Assembly (NCBI GenBank): GCA_965207445.1
Contig: CBDBLX010000002.1
Coordinates: 64,001-128,000, forward strand
From: Nitrosopumilus sp.
GTDB taxonomy: Archaea; Thermoproteota; Nitrososphaeria; Nitrososphaerales; Nitrosopumilaceae
Reading direction: 5' to 3'
DNA: 64,000 bases
Shown here: positions 11,357-61,504 of the stretch, piece after piece
Layout of the letters: every line of letters begins with the position of its first letter
How positions within the stretch are numbered: position 1 is the first letter of the stretch
Notes under the pieces: model-generated
Seen by the model: the letters and a program-made list of their open reading frames with translations, nothing else
Database searches by the model: none
What the model was told of the DNA's origin: nothing
Translations under genes and position numbers: made by a program

Positions 11357-11358
11357 TT

Positions 11359-12756: not shown

Positions 12757-12828
12757 ATCATTCACCAAACTTCATCGCATAGCAGTAGATGTGTGTTGAG
12801 GTGTACAGGTAGGGGGTTTAACTGTTAC

Positions 12829-15634: not shown

Positions 15635-15807
15635 CCTATACACATGCCGATATTCAACATTATTCACAATTATTCATAAATTTTATTAAAGTTATGTACG
15701 TTCCACAGATTAATTGTAACAGCATTATAGTGTTTGTGCGTTTGCCATATATAATATCTGCGAGTGCTCACACACCTTTCTATTTGTTCCTGACCTCTCG
15801 CACAGAT
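15635..15807 (-). promoter_or_regulatory. Putative CRISPR leader
   Basis: AT-rich non-coding stretch between the cas2 stop and the non-degenerate end of the array; TATA-like TTATATAT on the minus strand near 15750. Confidence 0.65.
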
Positions 15808-16095
15808 CTACACCACTATTGTTGCCTCTCTTTGTGTTTCAAGTGACACACCCATCGTTGTTATCCGCACATCACTTTGACCAACAGGACCCACATTAAC
15901 GATAATGAGACTGTCTTCTTTCATATTCATGATATCTGCTAGATCATCTTTCATTATTATCAATTCACTAGGGCTTAGATCGCACATAAAAACTGAATAT
16001 TGCATATGATCACCATATCCACTCATCTTTTTGTATGTTTGTACAAGCCGTTGTCCATCCCTCACATCATAACACACAAAATATCTGTTGCGCAA
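15808..16095 (-). CDS. cas2: Cas2 (likely TTG start at 16095; the ORF track over-extends it to 16245)
   Basis: RYFVCYDVRD, GDHMQYSVFMC and EDSLIIV motifs; 95 aa directly downstream of cas1. Confidence 0.93.
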   Translation of the reverse strand: MRNRYFVCYDVRDGQRLVQTYKKMSGYGDHMQYSVFMCDLSPSELIIMKDDLADIMNMKEDSLIIVNVGPVGQSDVRITTMGVSLETQREATIVV

Positions 16096-16099
16096 TACA

Positions 16100-17797
16100 T
16101 CACCTCGTACGAAACACAGGGTATGTAGGAATTTCACCCAGTACGTGTCTAGCAAGTAATCTTGCTTGAGTCTCCAATATTCTCCTATAACTTGCACGAT
16201 ACCCAAGTAATGGGTGCATAACTGATGTATCCATACGTCTCTCATATGCCTTTATGATTGTCTTTCTTCCCTCTGCTGAAAGTGACACACCAAAATCAGT
16301 CTTTGTCATATCAGACTCTGTAATCTCACCGTTATTCACAACAGTAAGACATGTAGAGTCACATATGATTGAACGAAATTCTTCTATCAAATCAAGTGCA
16401 AGTGCAGGTTTTGAGTATTTGGGTCGGTGTAAATAACCAAGATATGGATCAAGCCCAACTGCGGAAACAGTAACAGTGGCTTGTCTAGTAAGTACAGCAT
16501 ACAAAAATGATAATATTGCATTAATCGGATCTTTTGGTGGCCTCCTATTTCGACCATCAAAATCAAATGTAGTTGAATCAGATTTTATCATCCCATGAAA
16601 TTCTGAAAAGTATAAACGCGCCGCTATTCCTTCAAATCCAAGTAGAGTATCATACTGTCTTGCAGTTAGCGCTCTATCAGCAAATGATTCCATTTCATTT
16701 ATCTTCTCTATTGGAGGTGACTTGTGATTTCGTCTGAGTAATGTTATACTGTTCTTTATCTTTCCAGCAACGATCTCTCGTGCAATTGCTAGTTGTAAGC
16801 TAGGTTTAGCATATACAGAATGTTGATGTATTCGGAGCTCAATGTTCTTGCTTGCAAGCCCACTAGTCATACCCATGAACCACCCACCATATGTCATATA
16901 ACAAATGGGGATATTTCTCTCACATAGTTCTCTTATTGCTTGTGTGCTAATTTGTACATTTCCAAATATAGTGAGTTCAGATACATCGATAAGTCTAACC
17001 TTTTTAATTTCGTTTTTGGCTTTGATATGCAAACAATCACCTGATTTTGATACGTAGGCGCCTTGTTCTTGTACATACACAGGCACAGCATCATTACGAA
17101 TTGGATACATGCGACGAACTTGATCTTTTGTGATATGTTGCGTTTCATCATCATCATCATTAATAGCACCAAGAAGATTTGTTTCATCAGGCAAACATAT
17201 TCCGACAAGTGAGCATTTTGGACATTTTGGACTATCAACCAATGGTGGCGGCATAAGATCTTTTTGTGCCATTTCCTTCATATCATGTATGGTTTGTAGT
17301 GTCATGGCTATGATTTGATCATCGAAATCTACTGTAACACGTTTCTTGGAGCCAATATAGTATATGATGCCATGTGTACAAGTGTAACCATTAGCGCGTA
17401 AAACCAATCCTTGGGCGCATACTTGAACCACATGATCAGGGTATGTGTTTGTAGGAGTTTGAGGAATTGTACCGCGTTTATACTCTATTGGCGTAGCAAC
17501 ATTTCCATCAATCTCCAATAAATCCATCTTTGCAATCAATCCCAGTTCAGAATCAGAGAGCATGGCAGATCGTGCATGAATGATCTCATCGGCACCATCA
17601 TCCGTATTGCTGGTAGATTTTGTTCTCTTTGATGGTTTGTCAACATTTCGGTGTTTGTATTTACCATCTATAACTTCAGTATTATATGCAAATTCCCCTT
17701 GAGTCCATTCCAAATATGCCAAACGTTTACAGTATGCAAACTGAGTCAACATTCTCACAGGTATAAGATCTGGAACATCACTCTTCTCCATACTCAC
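16100..17797 (-). CDS. cas1: Cas4-Cas1 fusion
   Basis: N-terminal Cas4 (YCKR, MDLLE, PIEYKRG, CPKCSLVGIC) fused to Cas1 (LGFEG, RRPPKDPINAILS, LALDLIEEFR); this fusion is typical of I-G. Confidence 0.95.
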   Translation of the reverse strand: MSMEKSDVPDLIPVRMLTQFAYCKRLAYLEWTQGEFAYNTEVIDGKYKHRNVDKPSKRTKSTSNTDDGADEIIHARSAMLSDSELGLIAKMDLLEIDGNVATPIEYKRGTIPQTPTNTYPDHVVQVCAQGLVLRANGYTCTHGIIYYIGSKKRVTVDFDDQIIAMTLQTIHDMKEMAQKDLMPPPLVDSPKCPKCSLVGICLPDETNLLGAINDDDDETQHITKDQVRRMYPIRNDAVPVYVQEQGAYVSKSGDCLHIKAKNEIKKVRLIDVSELTIFGNVQISTQAIRELCERNIPICYMTYGGWFMGMTSGLASKNIELRIHQHSVYAKPSLQLAIAREIVAGKIKNSITLLRRNHKSPPIEKINEMESFADRALTARQYDTLLGFEGIAARLYFSEFHGMIKSDSTTFDFDGRNRRPPKDPINAILSFLYAVLTRQATVTVSAVGLDPYLGYLHRPKYSKPALALDLIEEFRSIICDSTCLTVVNNGEITESDMTKTDFGVSLSAEGRKTIIKAYERRMDTSVMHPLLGYRASYRRILETQARLLARHVLGEIPTYPVFRTR

Positions 17798-45592: not shown

Positions 45593-47166
45593 TTAGGCCA
45601 AAAGCAGAAAGAGTGACGCCGGAACCATCACATATTCTGAAGAAACGTCGAGTCGATCTTTGGATATTACTAGACCCTTGCCACGCGTCTTGTTCAGAAC
45701 CCTACACATGCCGGCTAGGTCACGTCCCGGCCTGTTTCGATATTTTACTTCTATTGGCACCACCATCTTGCCACCGTCATCATATACAAAGTCAACCTCA
45801 CGACCCTTCTCCATGTGATAAAAGATTCTATAGTGGTGGTCAAAATTTTGTTTGCTGGGACTGGCATTAAAGGCCAATCTTGTCAGATGGTTGGCGACAA
45901 TACCCTCTATCAACACACTTTTGTTTTCGCTTGCATCAAGGTATTCTGATGATGCGTCAAAGTAGCCCCTAGATGCAGTCCATCCATTGAACATGTGAAA
46001 GAAAAACGGATCAACAAAGTAGATTTTTTTGTTACGGTGAAACATAGGGCTCCTGCTATCCATATTGTATCCATATATTGTAAGCAAAACGAAGAGGTTT
46101 GAGAGTGTCTGCACAGAGTCCTGTACCGTCTTGGGGGATCCGACATCTGCATTCTTGGCCATGTTGTTCCATGATGCATGGCTTCCTTGTGACTTTACAA
46201 CCTCCCTGCCAACGCGTTTTAACAGATTATTGTCTCTGCCAAGCCTTGACCACTCCCCCATGATGCTATCCATGTATGTACTGTACACGTTTTCGCGAAT
46301 AGGCAAAGTCGATGCTTGGGCATTTACGACAAAAGGAATTCCTCCGCTGTACATGTATTTGGACAAAAGATCGTCTAACAAGTGTTGATGCATGTGAGTG
46401 AGATCCATTGCACGATCTACTTCACCATTTGCCAGTTTGCCAAATGTTGTAAGCCGATCCTTGGATCTGAGAAAATACGAATCCACAATCGTTCTTATCT
46501 CCGAATCCATCGCACTGGCATACTCTGCAAACTTTAACGGAAAAAGAACTTTGTCGTGAGGTTCTGTTGTGCTTCCCCTTCGCCCGGGCAGCCGTTCAAT
46601 TGATCTCTGCAGGTCTATTGCATCAGAACCCGTCGCCATGACGGTACTGTTTGCAATACTGTTTCTATCCTTCAATCGTTTTATACCCTTTTGCCAGTTT
46701 GGGATGGTCGATACCTCATCTAGGAAGATGTAACGCCTCCCTTTATCCCACATACGACGTGTTAGTCTATTGTAAGACTCTACTACGTCGACCAGCTCAC
46801 TCGGTGTCTTGCACAGATCAAATGAATAGTAGAGTATGTTCCAAGGAGATGTTCCTTTCTTCAAGAATTCGCGTATCTGTAGTTTTAACAGGGTGGTCTT
46901 TCCAATCTGGCGTGTTCCCCTTAATGTATACACTACAGGATTGTCGGGCTCAAAATCATAGGTTATCTTGTGCATTATTCTCGGTACAATTTGCAACTTT
47001 GATCTCATCCACATTGTTATCTCCGGATCATCGTCAACCCAGTCAGAACCTCTCCACCATGGATTGTCCCTTATGATCTCACGTTCTACATCGAGATTAT
47101 CAAACTTTACTTGTCAGAACCTCTCCACCATGGATTGTCCCTTATGATGTCGCCATCTGCAATCAT
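45593..47166 (-). pseudogene. AAA_14/DUF4143-type ATPase with a C-terminal PD-(D/E)xK-like motif; 5' end interrupted by a 71-bp insertion (residual ORF 45593-47014)
   Basis: GTRQIGKTT, IFLDEV, TGS, GGIP, KKIYFVDP and EVDFV...PIEVK motifs. Removing 71 bp joins ATG 47166 (MIADGDIIRDNPWWRGSD) in frame. Confidence 0.82.
47042..47148. repeat. Exact 36-bp direct repeat around a 35-bp unique insert
   Basis: GTCAGAACCTCTCCACCATGGATTGTCCCTTATGAT at 47042-47077 and 47113-47148. Confidence 0.95.
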
Positions 47167-47203
47167 GCACTGTACTACTAAGTAATTTATATAAGAATTG
47201 TCA

Positions 47204-47275
47204 TCACACTACTAACTTAGTTATATACTAACTATCCTCACACTACTAACTTAGTTATATACTAACTATTCTCAC
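47204..47275. repeat. 34-bp tandem duplication upstream of the ATPase gene; each unit contains a palindrome
   Basis: TCACACTACTAACTTAGTTATATACTAACTAT x2; TAGTTA-N5-TAACTA within each unit. Confidence 0.85.
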
Positions 47276-47501
47276 GAGGCTGTCAAGTTACAGGAACAAG
47301 AATCCGCCGGTTAAACGCGTGACATGGAACAAGATCAGACTACTTTCAGCGGTAAGATCGCCTGAGTCCATTTCCAATCGTCAGTCTTACAGTAGGATCT
47401 AGGTTGTCAAGACTCAGTAGCGCCGCATCCGCATAAATTGATTTTCATATGGTATGTGGGTGTAGAGCAGTCATGCCCAGCCACGTAAACCCCTTCAGAC
47501 C

Positions 47502-47961
47502 GTAACTATTTTGCTTTTTGAAGCGCACACACATAAAGTAAAAGATCATGCGTGTTGTTCTGATCATGATGATCTCGGCATCGTATATTCATGTATGATC
47601 AATTGGCAACAATAACGCATAGTTGATTATAATATGCAGATGGATACACAAATGATTCTGTAGTTTTAGCCAGGGTTATATGATTTGCACAGCATATCAA
47701 AAAAAAACTCTCACCTCTGATCTTACCTGTTGCAAGCAGTGTGAATAATATTGAGTTGGCCTCCATACCACGAGACGTTCTGTTTCCATCATCACCACCA
47801 TCATTTTTTATGGATACAAATACTCGATTAGTTCGTTCAACATCATTGTTGTCTGGCGGCACATCCTTTATGTGTAAAAAGGTTCTCATGTTGTAGAGGT
47901 TGGTGCGTAATTGACATTTGGCCTGCCTGTGACCCTTCTGTGAGCTTGGTTTATTGTACAT
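47502..47961 (-). mobile_element. IS66-family remnant
   Basis: End GTAACTATTTTGCTTTTTGAAG; transposase C-terminal fragment VPPDNNDVERTNR. Confidence 0.8.
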
Positions 47962-48076
47962 TCAATCTACAAAAGACTGAAATCTATCTATAGTGTGTTT
48001 TGTTTTTGAATATACATGTGTGTTTTAGCAGACAGATTATAGAACATGAAACGTGCAAGTGTGATGGCAGTCACTA

Positions 48077-49189
48077 TCATTCGTATGATGGAATTTTTTG
48101 CCCTTTTTCATGAGCGCAGATAAATCTGTTCAGGACGTTGATATTCCATGCAATCGATAGTATTTTACCAAACCGCTTTTGGTTTTTGGCCAGGCGCATA
48201 CGACAGTGTAGCCTGTGATTCTTTGTTTCTTCTGCTCCAAATATTGCCTCGATAAGTGCGCGTTGTTTGTATGCATCTTGGTCAAAGATCTCCGCTGCTT
48301 TTTTTCTGCTTGGTTTGCCACGGTTTGTATGACCTGCGCCATCTGTGTGATTGCGCTGCTTTATGTTCGGTTTCATGTTTGCATTGAATATTGTCTCGCA
48401 ATTTTGATCCGAGTCGTATCCCTTGTCTCCGTTGAATAAGCGTTCTTCAATCTGTGTATAGTTTTTTACAAGAAAGTTGACCATATGTGGAAGCATTGAC
48501 GTGTCACTCACATTGCTTGGTGTTGTGTATGATGCAAGTATGATCTGGTGTCCGGTTATCGCAGTAATGTGATATTTTAGGTACATCTTGATGCGTGTCG
48601 GCTCAAAGTCTTGTAGTAAATGATTAGGTCTTTCTTGTTTTTCGTACCTGTCAGTCTCTACCCCACTACTGTCTACCCCAATCGGAGCGGTAGGTCCTTT
48701 TTTTACGTCTTGTTTACCGCTCTCAAAATCCTCGGATCCGTGCGTAAGTATGGTCTCTTTACCTTTTATCGGTACCGGATCTGTCCCAGATTTTTCAAGT
48801 TCAGTTAGACACATGTTGGCAGTATATGCCAAAATAGAATCAAGCCAGTCGAGATCAATTGTTTGCATATGTTTGGTTACCCAACTATAATCAGGCTTCG
48901 TCTCGTCAACCCATTCATCATGCATATGTCCAAGCTCATTTACCACATCACGAAAAGGAATATTTTTTGCAACTTTTAAAAGACACAAAAAATCCATCTT
49001 GTCACGAGAGTGTACCGGCTTGCATCCTCTATTTGTCTTCTTTTCCTTGCACGGATGTGGGTTTTTTCGTATCGCTGACAACAAGGTCTTGCGCATAAAA
49101 TCCGGCTCAGATTTGCGTGCCTGTTCGTAATACAGCCAATAACCTTCGCGTCGCTTGTGCTGCTCTGTCACTATACGGTCTGCCTCCAT
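48077..49189 (-). CDS. IS5/IS4-type DDE transposase
   Basis: GVDSSG, KYHI, GDKGYDS and YKQRALIEAIFG (YREK-like) motifs; element ends not identified. Confidence 0.82.
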   Translation of the reverse strand: MEADRIVTEQHKRREGYWLYYEQARKSEPDFMRKTLLSAIRKNPHPCKEKKTNRGCKPVHSRDKMDFLCLLKVAKNIPFRDVVNELGHMHDEWVDETKPDYSWVTKHMQTIDLDWLDSILAYTANMCLTELEKSGTDPVPIKGKETILTHGSEDFESGKQDVKKGPTAPIGVDSSGVETDRYEKQERPNHLLQDFEPTRIKMYLKYHITAITGHQIILASYTTPSNVSDTSMLPHMVNFLVKNYTQIEERLFNGDKGYDSDQNCETIFNANMKPNIKQRNHTDGAGHTNRGKPSRKKAAEIFDQDAYKQRALIEAIFGAEETKNHRLHCRMRLAKNQKRFGKILSIAWNINVLNRFICAHEKGQKIPSYE

Positions 49190-50122
49190 AATTTGTTCTT
49201 ATTTGAAACCCACACACTAAATTTACACAAACAACAAGCAGACATCACATTCATCACAAACCATGCATTGTAATGGGTGTCATTCTGTGTAGTATAGCAT
49301 GTTGTGGCAACCCACCATATGTCGTCGTTCCACCGCACTTCACAAACGATACGTTGATAACATTGGCTAGTCAACGTTGTTTAGCATCCCCTTTGGTCAT
49401 ATTCCAATTATTCAATTGGGGTGCCCCTATAAGTAACTTTTGGTATGCGCGCATATACTTTTATATATGAGCTTATTAAATATATGTACATAAAACTCTG
49501 GCGATATTTGCAGATGGCTTTGCAAGTACGATGCAGATGGCGATTTGATGAATTACGCACCAACCACCATGTTGTATCCTTTGCGCCTCAATCTCTTTTT
49601 TTTGAATCGGTTTATTATGCCCTCTTTGTCACCGTCCCAGTCTTTTTCCTTTGTCCAATCATTGTTCATTAGTTGGCGCAGTTGGCTGTCCAAACAATGA
49701 GGCCACTTGTCGTGTGCGAAGATCGCCTATTTCATCTGCTTTATAGAATTGTTTGAATATTCGAACTAACGTGGTGAGAAATCAGTGCTACACCTTTTGG
49801 ATTCACATATTTGATGTCTTTTTTTGGCAGTCGAGTCTGATGTGCCAAACACATCTGATGGATTATTCCAATGTGACTCTATGATGGATTAGAGTCGTGT
49901 CGTACTAGTCCCTTGTATTTTGGCAGGAATTTTTTGAGGGCGGATATTGTTTTGTCATCAATTATCTCTATTAGACAGCAGTCGTCTCCGAGCGCAATCA
50001 AACCACACACATGTTTTTTGTTTGCTCCAGGCCAGTCAAACTCATCACAGCCTAACTCGTTTTTACTCAAAATTTTTTAAACCAAAATTATCATAGTATA
50101 TAATCATAAGAATTTAAGTGTT

Positions 50123-50268
50123 CACTTCAAAAAGCAAAATAGTTACACATTTTGGGTATTTTCTTACATATCGTGTTTATCATTCAGATTTACATAAATT
50201 CGATCACAACAACGATCGATATTGCTGTATATGTATGCATACTTACAGAATAGTGGTTTAACTGTTAC
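50123..50268 (-). mobile_element. Two nested IS66 end remnants
   Basis: The reverse complement of 50147-50268 aligns with the left end of the array-inserted IS (10679-10810). It is cut at 50146 by a GTAACTATTTTGCTTTTTGAAG end like that at 47502. Confidence 0.8.
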
Positions 50269-50276
50269 GTGTCCCT

Positions 50277-50555
50277 TTACCCGCGTTTCGGGTACTTTGG
50301 GCGTCCGGCCCTCAAGCTTGCGTTCTGGTCGGAAAGGTCCCTCAACCTTGCAATCAGGTGAACCACATAGTCCGCCATCCTTTCGACGCCCTCCCGGTCC
50401 ATGCCGGTCATCATACGGACGAGCTGCTCGCGTATTATCTCAGGCTGGACCACTGGCCCCTCGCCGGGCATGACCTCAGTCGCCTTGAAGTACTCGTACG
50501 GAACCGGCGTCTTTGACGTTTTTTTCGTCGATTTCGCGGCTTTTTTCTTATTCAT
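50277..50555 (-). CDS. Hypothetical protein in a GC-rich patch
   Basis: 92-aa ORF with GC-rich codon usage, co-oriented with 50580-51236. Confidence 0.5.
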   Translation of the reverse strand: MNKKKAAKSTKKTSKTPVPYEYFKATEVMPGEGPVVQPEIIREQLVRMMTGMDREGVERMADYVVHLIARLRDLSDQNASLRAGRPKYPKRG

Positions 50556-50579
50556 GGTAGTTCAAAAAAGTGAAAGGGG

Positions 50580-51236
50580 CTATGCCCAGAACCAGCTCCA
50601 ACTGCCTGTCTGCCTGCCGTCATAGTCCACCGTGACGTGGACTATGTAAAGGCCCCCAAGCGTGGCGCATTCCAGCGGGTACTTGTCTACCGGGGGCACC
50701 TCCAAGTTGGCGTGGCACCCGGATCCGTCCCAGACGTTCCTGATGTCAAGGTACACATTGGTTTCCCAGCCGTGTTCCTCGCAGTTCGGGGAATCTCCGG
50801 ACGTCAGTATGCTCGGGAACCACTGGTCGACACGGAGGTTGATGTTGCCGTCATAGTCAACCTTGTAGTGCCACGTCTCGTTGGCATCGTCACATCCCTT
50901 GTTGACCCCGTACATGTTGAACAGGTCCCTCCACTGGGTGCTCTGCTGCTGGGTGTCGCTTCTCGTGGCCTGTGTCGTCTGGACGTCGGAGACGTCATCG
51001 TGCAGCCTCTGGAGCACGTCCTGCTGTTCGGACTTTAGGCTCTCCCTAATCTGCACGTCTTCGGCCTGCTGTATCTGCGCTTCCAGGGACTGCACTTGCC
51101 GTATCAGTTCCTTTTTTTCGCTGCCTGACAAGCCTGTCGCTTCCTCGGCCACGGCACGATCCATTGCGCCAAGCGGCAGGATCATTGCGGTGATTATGGG
51201 CGCGGACAGTGCAGTCTTTACGTTTTGCAAAGTCAT
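50580..51236 (-). CDS. Hypothetical, possibly exported protein in a GC-rich patch
   Basis: Hydrophobic signal-like N-terminus, a coiled coil and a 4-Cys beta-rich C-terminus. Confidence 0.6.
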   Translation of the reverse strand: MTLQNVKTALSAPIITAMILPLGAMDRAVAEEATGLSGSEKKELIRQVQSLEAQIQQAEDVQIRESLKSEQQDVLQRLHDDVSDVQTTQATRSDTQQQSTQWRDLFNMYGVNKGCDDANETWHYKVDYDGNINLRVDQWFPSILTSGDSPNCEEHGWETNVYLDIRNVWDGSGCHANLEVPPVDKYPLECATLGGLYIVHVTVDYDGRQTGSWSWFWA

Positions 51237-51391
51237 TGAACGGGTATGATGGTATCGTCTACTTAAGGCTTCATGTAAATCTGAATATTCATACCTGTAT
51301 TTTCGTGTGAGTTAACTTATTGTGGCATAATCATAAGATCATATATCTTTAAGATTTATCATCAAGTGATAGACCAATAATTTTACACAAT

Positions 51392-51754
51392 TCATCCCAG
51401 ACATTGTACACGCAGATTCCACGTCTCAACACAACTAAATATTACACAGAGATTTTCTGCCCCCTTGTCACTCTTCAACTGCAGACGACTGTTCCTCTGA
51501 CTTGTTACAGGTTTCATTGATTGCTCTCCAAGATTTGTGGTAGAGTAGACAAATGGATACAAAACAAATGTAAAAAGTTCGGGCGCTGCGTTTTCTAGTG
51601 TGGCGCCAAACTCTTTCATTATCTCATATCTGCTTTTTTTGTATCTAGATATTATACCACACAACCATTTTTGAAGTTTTGTAACATATGAACTCTTTGT
51701 GTGACCCAAACTCTTTGGATGCAATAACGAAATCACATATTTGTATTTGGTCAT
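51392..51754 (-). pseudogene. IS66 transposase C-terminal fragment
   Basis: LENAAPELFTFVLYP..STTNLGEQSMK resembles LLNAAPDLFTFVKYPGMPPTNNKSERTLR in 11359-12756. Confidence 0.75.
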
Positions 51755-51813
51755 ATTTCTATCTGTATATTGAGATAGTGCATGCGATGCATTTGAGTAG
51801 GCGTTATTTTTGA

Positions 51814-52038
51814 ATGATCATATTAGTCATGGATCTTGGTTCACACATAAAATTTATAGACATTGCCCGTATCAATACATACATGAGCAAAGGTGGAGAA
51901 GTGGCACGTCGTTTAAAAGACAAACTACCACAACATGCAGATGATCTGGAATACATTGCGCTCAGTTTTGATCGCACAGAACAGCTTTTGAAGGAAGCCG
52001 ATGAACGATGGGACAGCCTAAATGCAGGTACAGCATAG
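51814..52038 (+). CDS. Small hypothetical protein (probable start at MSKGG)
   Basis: Protein-like helical composition only. Confidence 0.35.
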   Translation: MIILVMDLGSHIKFIDIARINTYMSKGGEVARRLKDKLPQHADDLEYIALSFDRTEQLLKEADERWDSLNAGTA

Positions 52039-52248
52039 TTAAATCGGGAGGTTTTTTAAAAGAATTTTAAAAAGCAAATCACATTTGTTTCACAAGTGTG
52101 CAAGACCCAATACAGAGCTAAATTACAATTTTTTGAAGAAAAACGTCGCAAAACTAAAGGTGAACGTTGGATTTTATTAGAAAAGTGATTATATTTCAAG
52201 GGTAAATATTGCCATGATTATCCAGATTAAAAAAAGTATTAAAATGAT

Positions 52249-52941
52249 CTAATATTGAGATTTACTAATTAGAATTTTTGCCACCATTTTCTCGGTAAAA
52301 TTTACAATCATCACGTATCTGGCATACCCCACACATAGCGAGACGGGCTTGCAAATATTCTGCCCATACATTACAAACGTGTCGTTTATGCGCAACCAAT
52401 ATCGTTTGGGTATCAAATCCATTAGCGCTTGTTCGGTATCTTCGGGTGTCTTTGTATTTACAAGTCCTAACCTATTTGATATTCGATGTACATGTATGTC
52501 AACTGGTATGGCAGGCCGCTCAAATGCATACACTAAAACACAGTTGGCAGTCTTGCGCCCTACACCGGGTAATGATACAAGTTTGTCAATATCATCTGGT
52601 ACGACACCACCATATTGTTTCTCTATAATCTTGGCAACATCGATAATTCTACGCGCCTTTACATGATAAAATCCAATAGGCATTACAATACGCTCAACGT
52701 CTTTTATTCGAGCAGTTGCAAGTTCTTTGGAATTTGTATATCTGGCAAAGAGTTTCTTGACTACCTTTGTAGTGTTCTCATCTTTTGTACGCGCAGATAA
52801 AATTGTCCCAATCAGGATACTAAATGGACCTCCAGTCTCTGCATCATGTAGCTCTCTGAGCGCAGTCATTCTAGGAGGTTTGACGGCGTTCATAGTCTTT
52901 GTCATGCCATCAAGTATCTTTTTCATGCATATAGTATTCAT
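52249..52941 (-). CDS. nth: Endonuclease III, with an apparent 1-nt frameshift in the C-terminal Fe-S motif
   Basis: LSARTKD, LPGVGRKTAN and VDIHVHRI motifs. Adding one base near 52338 gives CKPVSPMCGVCQIRDDC. Confidence 0.9.
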   Translation of the reverse strand: MNTICMKKILDGMTKTMNAVKPPRMTALRELHDAETGGPFSILIGTILSARTKDENTTKVVKKLFARYTNSKELATARIKDVERIVMPIGFYHVKARRIIDVAKIIEKQYGGVVPDDIDKLVSLPGVGRKTANCVLVYAFERPAIPVDIHVHRISNRLGLVNTKTPEDTEQALMDLIPKRYWLRINDTFVMYGQNICKPVSLCVGYARYVMIVNFTEKMVAKILISKSQY

Positions 52942-52976
52942 GCAAGTGTTATATCTGTAACATTTAGAGTACACGT

Positions 52977-54149
52977 GTGGAGTTAACAGAATCAGAAGAA
53001 AGAGCACTTGCAGGTGAGAGTGGCGAGGTTATGCAGATGGCTTATCGCATACTAGTTGCAACTGGCAAGGCAACTGATGCAGACAGACTAGTACCCGTGC
53101 AATGGGCACACCTATCAGGTGTCAACTATAATACCATAGGAGATGCAGGTGAGGAATTTCTAAAGAGTTTAAGCCACAAGGGTGCCAGGGTGCGCGTAAA
53201 GACAACATTAAATCCTATGGGATTTGATGCTGACAGTGTATCTAGATATGGATTAGATGATGAGTTTATTGCAAAACAAGAGTCAATAGCAAAATCATAC
53301 ACGATAATGGGCGTGACACCGTCATTCTCATGCATACCATATGAGATATTCAAGATGCCTATCAAAAATTCACAAATAGCATTTGCAGAGAGTAATGCTG
53401 CAATATATGCAAATTCATTTGATCATTTAAAAACGAATAAAGAAAGTGCATTTAGCGCACTTGCAAGCGCCATAACTGGAAAGAGTCCATACTCTGATCT
53501 ACGACGTGATGAAGAGTCAGATGAAATACCAGTTGTGCGTATGAGGATAAAAGAACCAGATGAGCTAGCATATGGGATGCTCGGATACTTTGCAGGCAAA
53601 GCCACTGATACGTCAGTAGTTGATATATCAGGCGTCTTGTCATCTGCAATGGATAGACGGCAATGCAAAGCTATGTGCGGGGGCATGGGAACATCAGGTA
53701 CCTGTGCAAAGTTTCGGTTTGTGAGTAATAATGATAAAAAAAATGTAGAAAAGATAGATTTTGATCATGATGCAATGCAACAAGTCAAAGACGAGTTAAA
53801 CACAGCAGAGAATGGAGATGTAGTCATACTTGGCAGCCCACAGCTTGGATTATGGGAGATATTAGATTTAATCAAACGACTGAAGGGCCGCTCATTTCAA
53901 AAGAGATGTATGATATTTTGTCCTAGAATAGTAAAAGAGCAAGCACAAGAACAGATTCAAGTGTTAGAAAAGGCAGGATGTGAGGTCATGGCAGATTGTT
54001 GCGCGTGCCTCTCGCCACTAGTTGAGACAGATGATATAGATACCGTGACTACAAATAGTATCAAGGGTGCGTTTTATCTTAACAATGCAAGTGGTGTTGG
54101 AGTAGAGTTGAAATCATTATCTGAAATCCTAGAGGACGAGACTGTATAA
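52977..54149 (+). CDS. Aconitase X large subunit (DUF521; probable phosphomevalonate dehydratase large subunit)
   Basis: AHLSGVNY, TTLNP, SCIPY, AESNA and TNSIKGAFY motifs. Confidence 0.85.
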   Translation: MELTESEERALAGESGEVMQMAYRILVATGKATDADRLVPVQWAHLSGVNYNTIGDAGEEFLKSLSHKGARVRVKTTLNPMGFDADSVSRYGLDDEFIAKQESIAKSYTIMGVTPSFSCIPYEIFKMPIKNSQIAFAESNAAIYANSFDHLKTNKESAFSALASAITGKSPYSDLRRDEESDEIPVVRMRIKEPDELAYGMLGYFAGKATDTSVVDISGVLSSAMDRRQCKAMCGGMGTSGTCAKFRFVSNNDKKNVEKIDFDHDAMQQVKDELNTAENGDVVILGSPQLGLWEILDLIKRLKGRSFQKRCMIFCPRIVKEQAQEQIQVLEKAGCEVMADCCACLSPLVETDDIDTVTTNSIKGAFYLNNASGVGVELKSLSEILEDETV

Positions 54150-54579
54150 TGAATCATACAATTATTCAAAAACCCCAAAAATGCAAAATTCTAGTAAGTG
54201 GTAAGACTGATGGCATCATACTACAATCACACACACCGATAAACTTTCTAGGCGCAGTGAATAAAAAGACTGGTTTGATCACTGATAAAAAACACGAATT
54301 ATATAAAAAAAGCATTAAAAATGTCATACTAGTATTCCATCGGGGGCAGGGAGTAGTGTGGGAGCATATACCATATACTCTATCAAAGCAAACAAAGTAG
54401 CCCCACATGCTATGATATGCCAAAGAGCTGACTTGACAATTGCAACAGGGTGCGCCGTTGCAGATATTCCACTTTTAGTCATTGATGATGATAATATATT
54501 GAATATGCTCAATACAGGATCACACGTCACACTAGATACAGAGTCAGATAATTTTATTACATTAACAAATGATGATTAA
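54149..54579 (+). CDS. Aconitase X small swivel subunit (DUF126), split by an apparent 1-nt frameshift near 54337
   Basis: PINFLG..TG.ITD..H and GAYTIY...APHAMI motifs. Adding one C restores FPSGAGSSVGAY. Confidence 0.85.
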
Positions 54580-54736
54580 GTATAATAATAATGATCATTA
54601 AAATAATCAGTATTAGAGTAATATTTAGTATCAATTAAGACAGATGCAGTCTTTGTTAAAGTCCATTTACAAAACAGTCAATCTCAATAAAATGATCAAA
54701 AATTACTATACAAAGTAAAAAAAAGACGTCACAAGA

Positions 54737-55459
54737 TTATCTCTTTTTTGTCAAGTATAGCGCACCCACAATAATTCCTATCCCTGCTGCCACATAAAAT
54801 GGAAATAATGCAAATACATTTTGAGAAGGATCACCTGATAGAAATTCGACTAGAACGGTACCAGATGCCACGGCAGGCGGGTCAGTTGATCCCTCCATTC
54901 CATGTGTAGAAAAAGATACAGGTGCAAACAACCCAATATCCAAATTAGATACTACAATTCTTGCGCCATTGTTTACAGTCATACCAGCACGCTCCGTATA
55001 TGACACGATGACTTTAGCCTGCGGATACCACCCACGCTCCAAATCTTTGTGAATTATTATATATCCTTCATCAGGCGTCTGTACTGCTACCCAAAACCTA
55101 TAATCTGGATTTGCACCCATTCCAATTTCTACAAACTCGTCTTGTGTCTCTTTGTCATATAATCTAATTACGGCGTTTCCATTAGGATGCGCATATATCA
55201 AATCATTATCTATTGTAGCTTGCCAGCTTATGATATGGGATTTTTCCAGATCTTGAATCGGGGCAACGCGCAACACACGGTTGAACTCGGATGCATCAAT
55301 AGTAATCTCCTCTATGGTAAGAGACGGATTCTTGATATCTGTGTCAGTGTCTAGTTGTGTGTTATGCTCAGTAGCAACAGAATCAGGTATGGCAGATAAA
55401 GCTACAAGTGTGAGGGCGATAATACTAGTAGTAATGTAAGATGATACCAAACGTGACAA
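54737..55459 (-). CDS. Hypothetical exported protein with a C-terminal membrane anchor
   Basis: N-terminal signal-like segment; C-terminal TM helix followed by KKR. Confidence 0.7.
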   Translation of the reverse strand: MSRLVSSYITTSIIALTLVALSAIPDSVATEHNTQLDTDTDIKNPSLTIEEITIDASEFNRVLRVAPIQDLEKSHIISWQATIDNDLIYAHPNGNAVIRLYDKETQDEFVEIGMGANPDYRFWVAVQTPDEGYIIIHKDLERGWYPQAKVIVSYTERAGMTVNNGARIVVSNLDIGLFAPVSFSTHGMEGSTDPPAVASGTVLVEFLSGDPSQNVFALFPFYVAAGIGIIVGALYLTKKR

Positions 55460-56262
55460 TTATCTCACATGAAGTTTCTTTCTCAATTAATTAAATTGTA
55501 CTTTGCGTTGTTCGGGAATTGTATATTTTAGTTAACTGTGTGAGACCCTAAAACCAACCCCTACTATGAATCAGAGTACCCGGCAAGCATTTTAGGGAAG
55601 GTATAACTCGGACTGAATTGTTCAAGATATTCCCTGATAATCAGTTTGCAATGCAGTGGTTTGAGAGGCGCATATGAAATGACGGTAGAGGATGCCCAAC
55701 TTGCGAGAATCCATACACCACAGTATCCACACAAAAGACGACGCCTTACTATTGTTACAAGTGCCGGCACTTTTTCTCAGTCAAAAAAGGTACTGTAATG
55801 AAGCAGCCACACATATCATATCAGAATGGGCTATTGGAACCTATCTTGTTGTAACTAACCTGAGGTGTCTCAAGTATGAAAATTCATAGAGATTTAGGAA
55901 TGACCCAAAAGTCTGCATGATTCATGCTTACAAGGCTCCTCGAATCTTGGAAGCAGTTGGCAGGCGTTGATAAGATGGATGGGACTAGAGACTGATGAGG
56001 CGTTCGTTGGTGGCTCAGATAAGAAGAATCGTCATGCAGACAAGAAAGTCACCAAACCAAAGACTGCTGTAGGTGGTGTCAAAGACCGTACATCAAACAA
56101 GGTTACTGTAAAGCCAGTGCCAGAAATTACAAAGACATGCTTGGAAGATTTCATTGAAAAGAATGTGACCGAGGATGCCAAAAAATACACTGATGAAAAT
56201 AGGATATATTCTGACTTGAGGAATCACGAGTCCGTAAACCACTTTGTAGGAGAGTATGTAAG

Positions 56263-56370
56263 GGGACAGGCGCATACAAACGGCACGGAGTTATTCTAGC
56301 TGAGAGACTAGAAGCTAAAAGAATAGAAAGAGAAAGGGACAGGCGCATACAAACGGCACGGAGTTATTCT
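56263..56370. repeat. Exact 35-bp direct repeat around a 38-bp unique insert
   Basis: GGGACAGGCGCATACAAACGGCACGGAGTTATTCT at 56263-56297 and 56336-56370. Confidence 0.95.
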
Positions 56371-56383
56371 GGTCCATGATGAA

Positions 56384-56489
56384 GTGCGGTTATGATGGAT
56401 GTACCATCACATATCCGACTGCTCTTCTAGTATGATCACGGTCAGTTGTATAACGTGCGGTTATGACGGATGTACCATCACATATCCGA
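56384..56489. repeat. 35-bp direct repeat (1 mismatch) around a 36-bp unique insert
   Basis: GTGCGGTTATGA(T/C)GGATGTACCATCACATATCCGA at 56384-56418 and 56455-56489. Confidence 0.95.
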
Positions 56490-56569
56490 GGATCATTTGT
56501 ACCGATACGTTAATGAATCCACCGGACGACACAACATTAGGAACATGGATAGTGTAGAGATGATGGGTA

Positions 56570-58235
56570 GTAGTTTCATTAAAGATCCGATAGTTTTTAG
56601 ACATTCTTATAATCATATATTTGGAAATCAAGCAGGCCCCATGTTGTAATCCATACATGCTCCATGATTTTTCCGTGCCATGTCCATGCCAGCCGTGTAT
56701 TCAGGCGTGGCAAAAAGTATGTGCGCAGCCGTCCTGATCATAGTGCGATCTGTGCGTCGCACAGCCTCACCCGGACCCACCTAGTTCGCGTAATATGCAG
56801 TTCATGCAGCCCGGAGTTCTGGTATTGGCGCGTTGTTCTTTGCGTCCTGTATGGCATTGCGCATGTACTCTAGCAGCCTGACTGTACCCACCTCGCCTTT
56901 TTCCATCATGTGTAGTATGGACTTTTGAATCTCTGGAAAACCACCTTTGTAGTATCTGCCTGCTAGTGCGCGCTTTATCTCGCGCCATTGGATCTCTATG
57001 GGATTGTGCTGAGGCGTATATGGCGGCAAGTACCATAGTGCAACTTGTCCTCTTGTCTGTTCCAGATACTGCTTGATGCCTTTGGACTTGTGCGCAGATG
57101 CATTGTCACATATGACAAATACCTTGCCGTACTTTTCTCGGAGCACCTCCAACAACTTTATGACGTTTACAGTATTCGCACTGTCGCAAAAGTGCAGGTG
57201 GCATGTACCGGCCCCGAGTGCACCCAGCATTTTCATACTTGTTTTTGAAAAGTTGACCTTTACAGTCTCAGAGCCTCCCCGGGTATATAGTCCGCGCGCG
57301 ACATACGGCGAGTTTGTGATTGCAGAGGCGTCCATGCAGAACACCTCATAGCCGGCGCGGGCGTGCGCCATGATGGCGCGTATTGTGTCGTGTACATAAT
57401 GTAGTTCTTCTAATGGACTGGCAGACTTGTGGTGAATTGGTCTGGGTATTCTTATTGAAAAGCCCATCCTGTGAGCTAGCGCCAGGGCCCCGGTCCACGT
57501 GTACTGGACGTCAAAAATGTTTGCCAGATGCAATGCAAACAAGGCGGCAGTCCATGTCCCACGCTCAAAGCCGCACTGCATCGGCTCTCTACTCAGATCG
57601 GTCTTTGCCTGTTCTTGTTGTTCTTTTGTGAGTCTGCACGGCCTGCCAGGGCTCTTGCGGTCGTACCTGCCCTCCAAGCCCTCTGACTGCAGTCTATTGA
57701 GCCACTCAGATATGACACCCTGACTACGTCCGAGCTGGGCGGCTATTACAGACTCACTCTTGCCCTTTTTTCGTCCAACTGCCGCCTGCAGTCTGTCCCG
57801 GGACTTACCCGGAGGCTCGTTGCGGTAGGCGGTTTTTAGATCTTCCAGGGACACGTCGGGCATGAACCCGTCCCCTTTTCCTACATAGGCCGTCTTCAAA
57901 AAATACGCACCTCGTCGATGCCGCAAGACGATCTGCCTGCAGAGTCGTTAAATATGGTATCGGCGAGTACTACTCGATGTACCATTTTTTCGTTTGACAA
58001 CAAACACTAATGGCCACATCGCCTTTTGACACTCGAGGTCAAATTAGTTAAACCAAATGATCAAAAGTTACTCTAAATACCTGCCACGGGATATACACCC
58101 TAATTCCTCGTCTCTCTTCTGGCTACCACACGGTATCTGCTACACATAGTGCCAATTACGTCTATTTTTCCACTCAGTACACAACTGCCTAGCCGAAATC
58201 GCCTGCAAAAACCATCGGATCTTTAATGAAACTAC
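56570..58235 (-). mobile_element. Nested element carrying an IS630 transposase
   Basis: 29-bp TIRs GTAGTTTCATTAAAGATCCGAT(A/G)GTTTTT with TA on both sides. The flanks also repeat ATGGGT, so the exact TSD is ambiguous. Confidence 0.85.
56802..57926 (-). CDS. IS630-family transposase (likely start near 57863)
   Basis: HTH with PGRP, CMDAS, CDNASAH and LPPYTPQHNPIE motifs. Confidence 0.92.
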   Translation of the reverse strand: MRHRRGAYFLKTAYVGKGDGFMPDVSLEDLKTAYRNEPPGKSRDRLQAAVGRKKGKSESVIAAQLGRSQGVISEWLNRLQSEGLEGRYDRKSPGRPCRLTKEQQEQAKTDLSREPMQCGFERGTWTAALFALHLANIFDVQYTWTGALALAHRMGFSIRIPRPIHHKSASPLEELHYVHDTIRAIMAHARAGYEVFCMDASAITNSPYVARGLYTRGGSETVKVNFSKTSMKMLGALGAGTCHLHFCDSANTVNVIKLLEVLREKYGKVFVICDNASAHKSKGIKQYLEQTRGQVALWYLPPYTPQHNPIEIQWREIKRALAGRYYKGGFPEIQKSILHMMEKGEVGTVRLLEYMRNAIQDAKNNAPIPELRAA

Positions 58236-58332: not shown

Positions 58333-58453
58333 TTACAGAGAAGTTACAGAGAAGTTACAGAGAAGTTACAGAGAAGTTACAGAGAAGTTACAGAGAAGTT
58401 ACAGAGAAGTTACAGAGAAGTTACAGAGAAGTTACAGAGAAGTTACAGAGAAG
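58333..58453. repeat. Perfect 11-bp tandem repeat (TTACAGAGAAG) x11
   Basis: Directly visible. Confidence 0.95.
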
Positions 58454-58687
58454 TACCCTCGACACGGGGGGTTTATTTTTTGGGCATCTAAATTTTGCAC
58501 ATGCTACATTACAGATGAGGTAACTCCCATTGCTGTCAATGCGGCAGCAGATCCAAGTCTAGGAGGGGCATGACTACTGCATAAGAAAACAGAACGTTCC
58601 CGTTCAGATAAGGATCACTATAATCGAGCCGTAAGCAGACTGGTATCGGTCAGTGCCAAGAGTGAAAAGACGCGCCAAAATGCAATC

Positions 58688-61504
58688 ATGGGCTGGATTG
58701 ATGTCACGTTTCCCAACACAGCGCCCGAACTTGAATATGTGACTGATGCAGGAGGCCAGATTGACATCTATCTGCCAACTCATCGTGCCATAATAGAAGT
58801 AAAGACGCCTAGCTCCCTTGGGAATGACCCGCGAGTCGGACTGGGATCGTATAAAGAATCCGCATATAAGCAACTTGCAAGATATGTTGAGGATGAGCGT
58901 AAGATTACACAAACATACATTGTAGATGAAGAGAATCCACGGAAGGACACCACATGGATTGGATGCGTCACGGATGCACGCAGGTGGTGGGTGTGGGAAT
59001 GGGAACATACCAGACACGCCGATGGCCGCGAGATTGGCGGGTGGCAGGGAACGCTACTGTCAAGCAACAACATCAGGAATCTTGAGCGGTTGTTTGACCG
59101 CCGTGTGGGCAAGCCATGGGCGCCAGCAGACCCGTCAGAACTATTCGCAGAATCACTGCAGAGACTACGCAACCTGTATGAGCGTGAACGATATGTGCCT
59201 GCCACCATAACACAGCGCAATCTGTGGTTGCAACAACTCAGAGCAAGTGGGAATGCACCCGTTGAAAGTATTGATGAGTTGTTTGTGCGACACACACTAC
59301 TCATACTCATAACGCGGCTCATCATCAAGACCATACGGCGCGACGACAACGATACCACGGCAGGCTTTGTCCAATGGGTGTCCGAAGACGGTGAGTTTAT
59401 CAGGGATTTGGCAGGAGTCATAGACCAATACAACTGGAGACATCGTAAGATCGACATACTCAGAGGACTGTACGGGAATTTTGTGGATGCCAAACACCGC
59501 AAGGCGTTTGGCGAATATTATACACCGGATTGGCTGGCCGAGCGCATATGCCACAAGACAATCGATGACGCGTACATAGAGGAGCAGATTACAAATTTCA
59601 GAAAGGGAGCCACCATAATGGGAGTGTTGGATCCGTTCTGTGGCTCTGGAACATTTCTTGTACATGCAGTGCGGCGCATTCTCAGTTCAGAGGCGCTTGC
59701 AAAAGCCACTCTTACGGATCACCAGAAAAATGACTTTGTGTCACAGATGGTTCATGGAATGGATATACATCCGGTGGCAGTTGAGATGTCACGCGGCAAC
59801 ATGCAACGCCTGCTGCCTACTGTGCCACCCACGGCAATACATGTGTACCAAGGGGATTCAATGCTCGTCGCTAGGTCTGAGAGTTCTGTATTGAGTAGTG
59901 GGGGCGAGTCAATGTTCCTTGAATCTCCCAAGGGGCACAAACTTGTCATTCCAAAAAATTTTCTTCGATCCAATGATGACATACGCGCATTCGTACTGTC
60001 GGCGCAGGTTGGAGATCGTCTTCCCGTGGGAATTACAGAAGGATTATCTCAGAACGAACAGAATGAGGTTGAGGAAGCCCACAAGATAATGTCAAAAATC
60101 ATCAAAGAGGAGCAAAATGGTGTTTGGTATTGGTATATAGTAAACCAAGCAGCCCCAATCCTACTGAGCGAGGGCAAGGTGGGCAGGATCGTCTCAAACC
60201 CACCATGGGTCGCACTACAGGAAATACAACACAAGCCCAGAAAGGAAGAGATTGAGCGGTTTGCCAAAGCCGAAAATCTGTTTGTGGGTGGTAAAGTCGC
60301 AGGCAGATTCGATGTTGCCATGCTTGCGGTACGCCGTTCAATTAATCTGTACATGAGTAAAGGTAAAAGAAAGATGGGGTTCTTGCTGCCACAGGGCGCC
60401 ATGCTGGGGGCTGAAAATTGGTCAAAGCTCGCAGATTCATACGGGCAGATAACTACAGACGAGTGGGATATGGGCCGCCTGCCGTTTCACAACACACCGT
60501 CATGTGTGATCTTGATGGATGATAAGCAGTCCGGACGCGGCGGGGCGTCCAGAAAGGCATATCGCATGCGGCGGGGCATTTTGCGCGTCAAGCCACATGA
60601 AACGTGGAGTGCGGTTGAAAGAAAGGTATGCGATGTTGGAATCTCCGAGTTTGTAAGTGCACCATCTGAATACATTGGCAGGCATGGCGCCTCACTTCAA
60701 CCTATGACTCTTGTGCGCATAAAGGACAGTGAGGTTCATGGAAAAAATATCAAGTTCACCACTTTTGCATCATTTAAGACGCCATGGAAGGCATTGGGAA
60801 GTCGGACAGGTGAGGTTCCCTCGCGGTTTGCCAAAGATACTCTGATTAGTGCAGGCATGTTTCCTTTCTACGCCAAGATTGGCAGTAATATAATCCCGAT
60901 GCGCGATGACGGGTCATGGGATCCGTCTAGAAACACCAATGCATACTGGCAGTCAGCCCAGAGTATGTATGATAACCACAAGGGTCTTGGAAAGAACACG
61001 CCAAAGACACTGGAAGCAAGTCTGGATCACATGCAAAAACTGACTAAGCAGATGGGTTCCAAGAATCACCGCGTTGTGTATAATTCGGTAGGAGACTATC
61101 TGTATGCGGCCATCATACAGCCCCATGTAATATGCGGTGTGGGCACGGTATATGTCAACACAACAGGAAAGAAGGAAGCGCAGTTTTTGTCAGCACTCTT
61201 AAACGCAGACTGCCTACATAATGCATTTGTATCTGCACAGAAAACAGATAGAAATTTTCACATGCACATACTAAACGATGTACCCCTTCCGAGATTTTGT
61301 CAATCGAGTACAACACATAACAAGATTGTGGACATATCTATTGAATGTGCGAAACTGGCACAACAAACATACAAGACACATTATACTGACATTGGAGACT
61401 TTAAGATGCGCACTACGATCCGAGTCGCATTGCAAGAGTCAGGTCTACAGGAGGAACTGTCCAAAAACATCAAGAAGATACTGCATGGGTATATGGATAT
61501 TTGA
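58688..61504 (+). CDS. Type IIG-like restriction-modification fusion (nuclease, N6-adenine MTase, TRD)
   Basis: IDIYL...IIEVK nuclease motif, TDARRW, GEYYTP, DPFCGSG and SNPPW motifs; C-terminal TRD-like region. Confidence 0.85.
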   Translation: MGWIDVTFPNTAPELEYVTDAGGQIDIYLPTHRAIIEVKTPSSLGNDPRVGLGSYKESAYKQLARYVEDERKITQTYIVDEENPRKDTTWIGCVTDARRWWVWEWEHTRHADGREIGGWQGTLLSSNNIRNLERLFDRRVGKPWAPADPSELFAESLQRLRNLYERERYVPATITQRNLWLQQLRASGNAPVESIDELFVRHTLLILITRLIIKTIRRDDNDTTAGFVQWVSEDGEFIRDLAGVIDQYNWRHRKIDILRGLYGNFVDAKHRKAFGEYYTPDWLAERICHKTIDDAYIEEQITNFRKGATIMGVLDPFCGSGTFLVHAVRRILSSEALAKATLTDHQKNDFVSQMVHGMDIHPVAVEMSRGNMQRLLPTVPPTAIHVYQGDSMLVARSESSVLSSGGESMFLESPKGHKLVIPKNFLRSNDDIRAFVLSAQVGDRLPVGITEGLSQNEQNEVEEAHKIMSKIIKEEQNGVWYWYIVNQAAPILLSEGKVGRIVSNPPWVALQEIQHKPRKEEIERFAKAENLFVGGKVAGRFDVAMLAVRRSINLYMSKGKRKMGFLLPQGAMLGAENWSKLADSYGQITTDEWDMGRLPFHNTPSCVILMDDKQSGRGGASRKAYRMRRGILRVKPHETWSAVERKVCDVGISEFVSAPSEYIGRHGASLQPMTLVRIKDSEVHGKNIKFTTFASFKTPWKALGSRTGEVPSRFAKDTLISAGMFPFYAKIGSNIIPMRDDGSWDPSRNTNAYWQSAQSMYDNHKGLGKNTPKTLEASLDHMQKLTKQMGSKNHRVVYNSVGDYLYAAIIQPHVICGVGTVYVNTTGKKEAQFLSALLNADCLHNAFVSAQKTDRNFHMHILNDVPLPRFCQSSTTHNKIVDISIECAKLAQQTYKTHYTDIGDFKMRTTIRVALQESGLQEELSKNIKKILHGYMDI

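Follow-up and report, generated by a model that had tools for sequence, protein, structure and literature searches.

What process leaves, outside a CRISPR array, a duplication as long as a CRISPR repeat around a unique insert as long as a spacer? We examined this question in a window of 64,000 nucleotides from Nitrosopumilus sp. (positions 64001-128000 of contig C2 in G000, a two-contig assembly of 2.6 Mb with 39.6% G+C), which holds a CRISPR-Cas locus assigned to type I-G and three such structures, called sites 1, 2 and 3 below. G000 encodes archaeal AmoA, so the host is an ammonia-oxidising archaeon. Coordinates are those of the window unless a contig is named. The three sites, together with about 40 others in the genome, are very probably products of ectopic spacer integration by the resident type I-G Cas4/Cas1-Cas2.

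Geometry of the sites in the window and across the genome

As found by direct-repeat search and inspection of the sequence, site 1 consists of a 36-bp target at 47042-47077, an identical copy at 47113-47148, and a 35-bp insert (47078-47112) between the two copies (period 71). Site 2 has target copies at 56263-56297 and 56336-56370 (35 nt exact, or 38 nt with one mismatch when counted from 56260) around a 38-bp insert that contains stop codons (56298-56335; period 73). At site 3, two 35-nt copies (56384-56418 and 56455-56489) differ by one mismatch and enclose a 36-bp insert (56419-56454; period 71). A first-pass annotation of this DNA, made by a model from the letters alone, had described three duplications of 36+35, 35+38 and 35+36 bp with periods of 71, 73 and 71, and all three are present where it placed them. 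Its figures for the array (36-bp repeats and spacers of about 35-39 bp) agree with our measurements of 36 nt and 35-39 nt; the 120 normal array spacers measure 35 nt (10 spacers), 36 nt (36), 37 nt (52), 38 nt (19) or 39 nt (3). The duplications of non-CRISPR DNA at the three sites (36, 35 and 35 nt) are thus of the length of the resident repeat (36 nt), and the unrelated inserts (35, 38 and 36 nt) are of the length of resident spacers.

Site 1 cuts the 5' end of an ATPase gene (AAA_14/DUF4143; 45593-47166, minus strand; Pfam PF13173 and PF13635). It lies 18 codons into the gene, behind the original start codon (47164-47166), with a stop codon right behind the first target copy by our reading of the sequence, and the open reading frame (ORF) that remains is 45593-47014. 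Sites 2 and 3 are separated by 13 bp and both lie in one pseudogene of an IS1595-family transposase (55578-56569, plus strand; ORF 55967-56299 matches PF12762), which can be aligned to paralogues at C2:1141.5k, 1427.5k and 1553.7k. It had been claimed that deleting one copy plus the insert restores the interrupted gene. For site 1 this is the case, the open stretch growing from 60 amino acids (aa) to a 514-aa frame. For sites 2 and 3, removal of the 73 and 71 bp restores collinearity with the three paralogues, but the gene copy remains dead (152 aa open). Just upstream of the ATPase gene there is also a 34-bp tandem repeat (47174-47275) in 3 copies, with 3 more copies in the allele on the second contig, C1.

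To count pairs at every period, we scanned the whole genome for direct repeats at periods 40-130, growing them from 14-mer seeds and retaining those that reached 24 nt. We filtered out the repeats of the array, tandem repeats without a gap, pairs for which a third copy lay in register, and pairs whose k-mers recurred internally or between repeat and insert. Before the low-complexity filter, periods 70-74 held 7, 12, 26, 10 and 5 pairs (60 in total) and other periods 0-8. After all filters, 73 non-CRISPR two-copy pairs were left, including 46 at periods 70-74 (2, 11, 19, 9 and 5, respectively); the other periods average 0.26 pairs, their highest counts being 5 at period 57 and 5 at period 69 (the period-57 pairs form one repeated-element family in the unfiltered listing). 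The Poisson probability of the peak at 70-74 is about 1e-53. A peak this sharp leaves chance as no explanation for the sites, and it falls at the array's own repeat-plus-spacer period, which is the outcome that the length test proposed in the first-pass annotation was meant to detect.

Restricting the pairs to periods 70-74 and repeat lengths of 28-45 gave a set of 43 sites. Two events are counted twice in this set (C1:41141 = C2:27186 and C2:479466 = C2:1094704), C2:1118861 is a false positive in a collagen-like repeat, and C2:1890883 is doubtful as it lies in a repetitive gene, so that about 39-40 independent events are found per 2.6 Mb. The duplicated segment has a mode of 36 nt (34-39 nt at 28 of the 43 sites), as does the insert; these modes match the 36-nt repeats and 35-39-nt spacers of the array, and the geometry therefore supports an origin from a CRISPR integrase. 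The two copies differ by 0 (15 sites), 1 (17), 2 (5), 3 (5) or 4 (1) mismatches, which points to events of varied ages. No site has gone on to grow: a third repeat copy or a second spacer is found in 0 of the 43 units, and the seven three-copy pairs at periods 66-78 are all low-complexity tandem repeats, so the suggestion that such scars could seed new arrays finds no example here.

Sites occur all along the chromosome, with 2-6 in each 250 kb (1-10 per 400-kb block). Three events within 10 kb had been called a high density; against this background the cluster is only moderately unusual, and a single dead transposase gene holds two of the three. Scars do tend to occur as close pairs (C2:1970707/1970899, C2:838721/840233, and 56263/56384 in the window), with two pairs less than 200 bp apart, whereas the average spacing would by our arithmetic predict about 0.2. 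This pairing may reflect dispensable DNA or local hot spots. One candidate, C2:55916 (a 50-nt repeat with a 22-nt middle), was rejected as a scar: it lies in a stretch of about 530 bp that is absent from C1, its middle recurs at dozens of loci, and it looks like part of a repeated element. There is also a long irregular tandem region at C2:528489-529823, not CRISPR-like, in which a unit of about 50 nt is combined with varying numbers of 9-nt CAAAGTCTA repeats.

Empty sites, donors and a second species

The direction of the events can be read from copies of the same DNA that have no insert. Contig C1 (121 kb; 121,040 bp) is a collinear variant of C2:1-119513 plus the end of C2, with an identity of about 98-99% in most blocks. 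C1 represents either a second strain (without CRISPR) that was co-assembled or a large segmental duplication, and the 'contamination' figure of 5.47% fits both. On C1, the site 1 target occurs once and exactly 71 bp are missing; when the insert and one repeat are excised, the flanks with the remaining repeat align to C1 without a gap at 98.98% over 196 nt. Apart from site 1, no ~72-bp indel with little or no duplication was found between C1 and C2. For sites 2 and 3, the three IS1595 paralogues (65-70% identical) have a single target copy and carry neither the 73-bp nor the 71-bp addition.

Across the genome, gapless empty copies were found elsewhere for 12 of the 43 sites, one of them the collagen-like false positive. 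The 11 genuine empty sites establish that sequence was inserted at the scars. In several insertion sequence (IS) families, one copy has the addition and 9-26 others at 93-98% identity are without it; the sites with many empty copies include 1593464 (n = 13, at 95-97% identity), 1668421 (n = 26) and 1708312 (n = 9). Excision also reopens reading frames at C2:1036499 (from 0 to 935 aa) and C2:2374093 (from 0 to 178 aa). Four copies of a repeated element (C2:479466, 1094704, 1511840 and 2232665) carry one and the same scar; its repeat copies have diverged, and the scar hence predates the spread of the element. Two further copies of this element, at 86-89% identity, are empty.

Some inserts were captured from other DNA. 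Four of the 43 inserts in G000 match distant loci, without the flanking duplication, over 32/33, 33/35, 35/36 and 28/32 nt. The insert/donor pairs are 293216/542544, 1629809/1891738, 2374093/1108489 and 521111/406803, and lie between about 114 kb and 1.27 Mb apart, at odds with an origin of the inserts from nearby sequence by template switching, which the first-pass annotation had named as a possible refutation. The remaining inserts, including all three from the window, have no match in the genome, and for the three window inserts an exact search of viral_contigs with the central 24 nt gave 0 matches, as it did for the 24-nt cores of three leader-proximal array spacers (exact search misses diverged viruses). 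The G000 array spacers themselves have no full-length match in G000, in the congener G051 or in the fetched part of a third genome, G072 (both introduced below). The inserts form no sequence family: shared 10-mers were found only in the two same-scar duplicates and in one other pair. Neither do they form hairpins: mean folding energies are -1.75 kcal/mol for the inserts, -1.70 in array spacers and -1.43 in random 36-mers, with a Mann-Whitney P of 0.83. Their G+C content is 44.6%, against 41.2% for array spacers. A small hairpin or MITE-like (miniature inverted-repeat transposable element) mobile element, considered as a candidate, was set aside as there is no stable hairpin and no sequence shared among inserts.

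To look beyond G000, 60 other genomes of the GTDB genus were searched for Cas4/Cas1, and four had a close match (61-71% identical). The closest, G051, is a congeneric species with a Cas4/Cas1 that is 71% identical, and its whole genome (2,387,848 bp) was scanned. The G051 array consists of 132 repeats (36 nt each), and its spacers measure 35-40 nt. Among its 43 filtered pairs, 14 fall at periods 71-73 (3, 6 and 5), which are 13 independent scars with the same geometry as in G000 (0-4 sites per 400-kb block). Four of these events (5 of the 14 listed sites) have donors elsewhere in the genome, two of them perfect (37/37 and 31/31 nt), and one ectopic donor lies inside a gatA-like amidase gene, a core host gene. 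A distance of 53 bp separates another ectopic donor (825023-825057) from the stretch (824934-824970) that a genuine array spacer matches over 37/37 nt. The two donors lie in one ORF that adjoins TraG/VirD4-like and VirB4-like genes, and that ORF is, judging by these neighbours, within an integrated conjugative-type element. An ectopic insert and an array spacer taken from the same ORF link the ectopic inserts with the sampling by which the array acquires its spacers. The array spacer concerned, at C1:1637502 of G051, is itself self-targeting against the integrated element, matching its own chromosome over 37/37 nt.

The first-pass annotation had also held that the same scars in relatives lacking cas1 would speak against its proposal. 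In the first 400 kb of G072 (2.36 Mb, no Cas1 match), the scan returned three pairs, all in one collagen-like gene, and no scar.

Probable ectopic integration by Cas4/Cas1-Cas2 and its rivals

The enzyme expected from this geometry is encoded next to the array. A PF01867 search of the whole G000 genome gave a single Cas1 match, the Cas1 part of an intact Cas4g/Cas1g fusion adjoining Cas2 and the array. The cas4/cas1 gene (16100-17797, minus strand) scores 731.5 bits against a curated cut-off of 560 with NCBIfam NF049935 and matches both Pfam Cas1 and Cas4; cas2 (15808-16110, minus strand) scores 29.6 bits against a cut-off of 24.5 with TIGR01573. A search for related loci with Cas4/Cas1 gave a Dehalococcoidia MAG (57% identity) as its sole match. 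The proposal that this Cas4/Cas1-Cas2 machinery integrates spacers promiscuously in nature thus gains support from the period peak, the distant donors, the 11 empty sites, the sole intact Cas4/Cas1 and the scars in a congener.

A mechanism can be modelled on the established chemistry of Cas1-Cas2. Cas4/Cas1-Cas2 loaded with a prespacer of about 36 bp would approach ordinary chromosomal DNA, and the two 3'-OH ends of the prespacer would attack the two strands about 36 bp apart, with the same stagger as on a CRISPR repeat. Gap filling would then duplicate 36 bp on either side of the insert, so that each event would add 71-74 bp. Prespacers would come partly from the cell's own chromosome and its integrated mobile elements, and the unmatched rest would presumably be foreign. 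The targets show hardly any sequence preference. In pooled base counts over the 86 junctions, no leader-like or repeat-like motif was found, and the sole signal is that T is scarce at the base where the duplicated segment begins on its 5' side (9 of 86). The products are of no use for immunity, because their 'repeats' are not CRISPR repeats, and behave like mutations.

Events of 71, 73 or 74 bp shift the reading frame and persist in dead or dispensable genes, as in the ATPase gene at site 1 and the IS1595 transposase gene at sites 2 and 3, and 72-bp events can persist as in-frame insertions of 24 residues in working genes. At eight period-72 sites, the surrounding frame (266-990 aa) remains open across the insertion and gains 24 residues (12 duplicated and 12 new), and one of these sites is near the C-terminal linker of a class II ribonucleotide reductase. 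The first-pass annotation had the scars disrupting accessory or mobile genes, but they are not confined to these: only 12 of the 43 lie in multi-copy elements, and the eight in-frame cases lie in long open genes. Orthologues are too distant or absent, so the in-frame cases rest on the repeat-insert-repeat structure: the ribonucleotide reductases of same-genus relatives are about 59% identical and their alignments end before the insert-bearing linker, and for the gene at C2:1805712 only 1 of 20 relatives has any match, a partial one, with an ambiguous paralogue alignment in the insert stretch.

Several observations weigh against integration by Cas4/Cas1-Cas2. About 14 of the 57 sites in G000 and G051 together combine a 27-32-nt duplication with a 40-45-nt insert, with the total length unchanged. 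Most of the short duplications show mismatches, or further similarity past a mismatch cluster, and are explicable by eroded ends, but two perfect short duplications (C2:1463861 and C2:2250948) are not explained by erosion; at C2:2250948, a few bases appear to be missing from one edge. Ectopic units are, by our arithmetic, about 0.7 bp shorter than array units (means 72.07 and 72.74, modes 72 and 73). The shift of the mode from 73 to 72 arises partly because in-frame products survive, but only partly, as sites in multi-copy elements also average about 72.1. No protospacer-adjacent motif (PAM) could be derived from the array spacers, and the eight traced ectopic donors have no common motif on either side, nor do they share a flank with the one self-match of a G051 array spacer. 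C1 is without the region C2:61087-81864 (20.7 kb, window -2913 to 17864), that is, the entire CRISPR-cas locus, in place of which it has 70 bp, yet it shares the scar C1:41141 = C2:27186, which must then have arisen before the locus was gained or lost. The negative control is small, at 400 kb of a single genome, though in agreement. Finally, it is from sequence that we infer Cas4/Cas1-Cas2 to be the catalyst.

The first of these points is also what an undescribed Cas1-independent process would predict, one that always adds about 72 nt by combining a short copy of other DNA with a compensating duplication of the target. Over the 57 sites, duplications measure 34-39 nt at 37, 27-32 nt at 14 and 40-45 nt at 4, all at periods 70-74, so the added total is held more tightly than its division into duplication and insert; some inserts copy the genome's own DNA, and that no PAM was found fits as well. 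However, the apparent compensation is expected from the way boundaries are drawn, as erosion of an edge or a chance match moves bases between repeat and insert with the period fixed; the 41-nt duplication at C2:1099770, for example, comes down to 36 nt once a 4-of-5 chance match is set aside. Such a process is made unlikely by the absence of hairpins among the inserts, by a period that coincides with that of the resident array in both species, by a donor gene common to one insert and a genuine array spacer, and by the lack of scars in the 400 kb examined of the Cas1-less relative. The units might also have been made by a different mobile-element integrase, or by a tiny non-autonomous element that duplicates about 36 bp of its target; either would suit an IS-rich genome with 12 of 43 scars in multi-copy elements. 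Known transposases make target duplications far shorter than this. The inserts share no sequence, terminal repeats or structure, a 35-bp cargo cannot hold element ends, and the Pfam Cas1 search returned the CRISPR Cas4/Cas1 only and no casposon-type Cas1; we regard this origin as very unlikely.

We give hardly any weight to local tandem duplication of about 72 bp, or replication slippage, followed by divergence of the middle, even though the units are direct repeats at a short distance and, at site 1, 8 of the 13 bases past the repeat also match between units. The empty alleles have no insert at all rather than a diverged one, the traced inserts have full-length matches at distant loci, and slippage would favour no single period, where other periods hold 0.26 pairs each. 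The probability of an assembly or polishing artefact is likewise close to nil. Public contigs are indeed broken within the exact repeats at sites 1 and 2, which leaves both unbridged, and the check for spanning reads that the first-pass annotation called for succeeded for site 3 only: in each of 4 public runs, a short-read contig of 257 nt (56341-56597) bridges it with 0 differences. These runs are from one sample, possibly the source sample; joints skipping 71 or 73 bp are not listed in any of them, which is uninformative on an empty allele in the sample. Against an artefact stand the identical scar in diverged element copies (the four of 479466), the recurrence of this class of scar in an independently assembled species, and the many scars that leave long reading frames open.

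Integration of spacers by Cas1-Cas2 away from the array has precedents. According to passages citing Nivala, Shipman & Church 2018 (bioRxiv 10.1101/148544, PMC6698737, PMC7054753, PMC11788318), off-target integration occurs in the type I-E system of E. coli with over-produced proteins, required artificial up-regulation, and can spawn 'neo-CRISPR' arrays; evidence for natural events is called 'circumstantial' in two other species in one of these sources (bioRxiv 10.1101/148544). The products are alike in having a spacer-length insert between repeat-length duplications of non-CRISPR DNA outside the array. They differ in that here a native archaeal type I-G system is concerned, with about 40 scars per 2.6 Mb fixed in a wild genome, one of them polymorphic between co-assembled variants, eight in-frame and none grown into an array. 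Archaeal integrases in vitro are also described as using off-target sites, which histones lessen (passages in PMC6698737 and PMC13748974). In the canonical type I-G pathway, as outlined in part of PMC13748974, Cas4/Cas1-Cas2 carries out Cas4-assisted PAM processing and directional integration. The enzyme family (NF049935), the 36-bp stagger and the array insert length are the same here, whereas the ectopic target is not the leader-proximal repeat and no common PAM lies beside the traced donors.

Ectopic spacer acquisition inside arrays is reported for Streptococcus thermophilus and S. mutans (PMC7999890, PMC5338259, PMC8265633), and it too takes place away from the leader-proximal repeat. Those events use a genuine CRISPR repeat in the array, whereas the DNA duplicated here is ordinary coding or IS sequence with no repeat-like motif; the first-pass annotation had likewise seen no resemblance to the CRISPR repeat at the three sites. 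Casposons are kilobase-sized, have terminal inverted repeats and make much shorter duplications. Casposases resemble the enzyme proposed here as Cas1-family integrases that produce a target-site duplication (PMC5137440, PMC6977970); G000 differs in being without a second Cas1. In a literature search that mostly did not reach subscription journals, we found no report of genome-wide natural scars of this kind or of in-frame protein insertions so made.

What the present case adds is numbers, empty alleles, distant donors and a second species: about 40 fixed events in a wild archaeal genome and about 13 in a second species, where prior knowledge, as far as the cited passages tell, came mainly from E. 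coli overproducing Cas1-Cas2. The chances seem to us evenly balanced that, in this genus, off-target integration by Cas4/Cas1-Cas2 is a standing mutational process, so frequent as to be polymorphic between co-occurring variants, which inactivates genes and ISs and writes 24-residue segments into proteins in use (one being the class II ribonucleotide reductase). If this is true, CRISPR adaptation would be a measurable source of protein-sequence novelty and genome decay, and the scars would chart, in vivo, the targets that a type I-G integrase chooses intrinsically. It is now possible to test the fidelity of a native integrase in nature, the cost to the host (broken genes versus tolerated in-frame insertions), whether prespacers without a PAM go astray, and what the type I-G integrase recognises where there is no repeat. 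A scan for a period peak at the repeat-plus-spacer length can serve as a cheap detector of past adaptation, even after loss of the CRISPR locus, as contig C1 illustrates.

The CRISPR-Cas locus and other features

The only CRISPR array of G000 is found at 4640-15634 (122 repeats of 36 nt; spacers of 35-39 nt) and is probably transcribed from the minus strand. A putative leader (15635-15807, minus strand) is suggested by its position between the array and cas2 and by the block pattern of repeat variants: we placed the leader end at the 15634/15635 side because the variants come in blocks, with degenerate repeats at the 4640 end. Both cas2 and cas4/cas1 point towards the 15634 end of the array. 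On the other side of the array, on the plus strand, are the 3' part of csb2 (2-760; TIGR02165), cas3g (760-3651; TIGR02621), and a gene of the Cas3-extension family (3648-4559; NF049934), each above its NCBIfam cut-off. With the Cas4/Cas1 fusion, Cas3g, Csb2 and the Cas3-extension all above their cut-offs, the family matches assign the locus to type I-G.

The array also contains an IS66 element (about 10632-12825; transposase ORF 11359-12756 by Pfam), and the repeat that follows it is damaged at its first bases. Internal duplications of the array were seen at 5294-5473 (spacer 10 = 11), 6163-6342 (22 = 23) and 7397-7974 (block 39-42 = 43-46), and spacers 9 and 13 are one base apart. Between C1 and C2 there are several further IS insertion differences of 1-2 kb. 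Elsewhere in the window, a perfect 11-bp tandem repeat (TTACAGAGAAG, 11.1 copies; 58333-58454) is located upstream of a 938-aa N6-methylase/MmeI-like gene (58688-61504), at a distance of about 230 bp, and might be a phase-variation switch.

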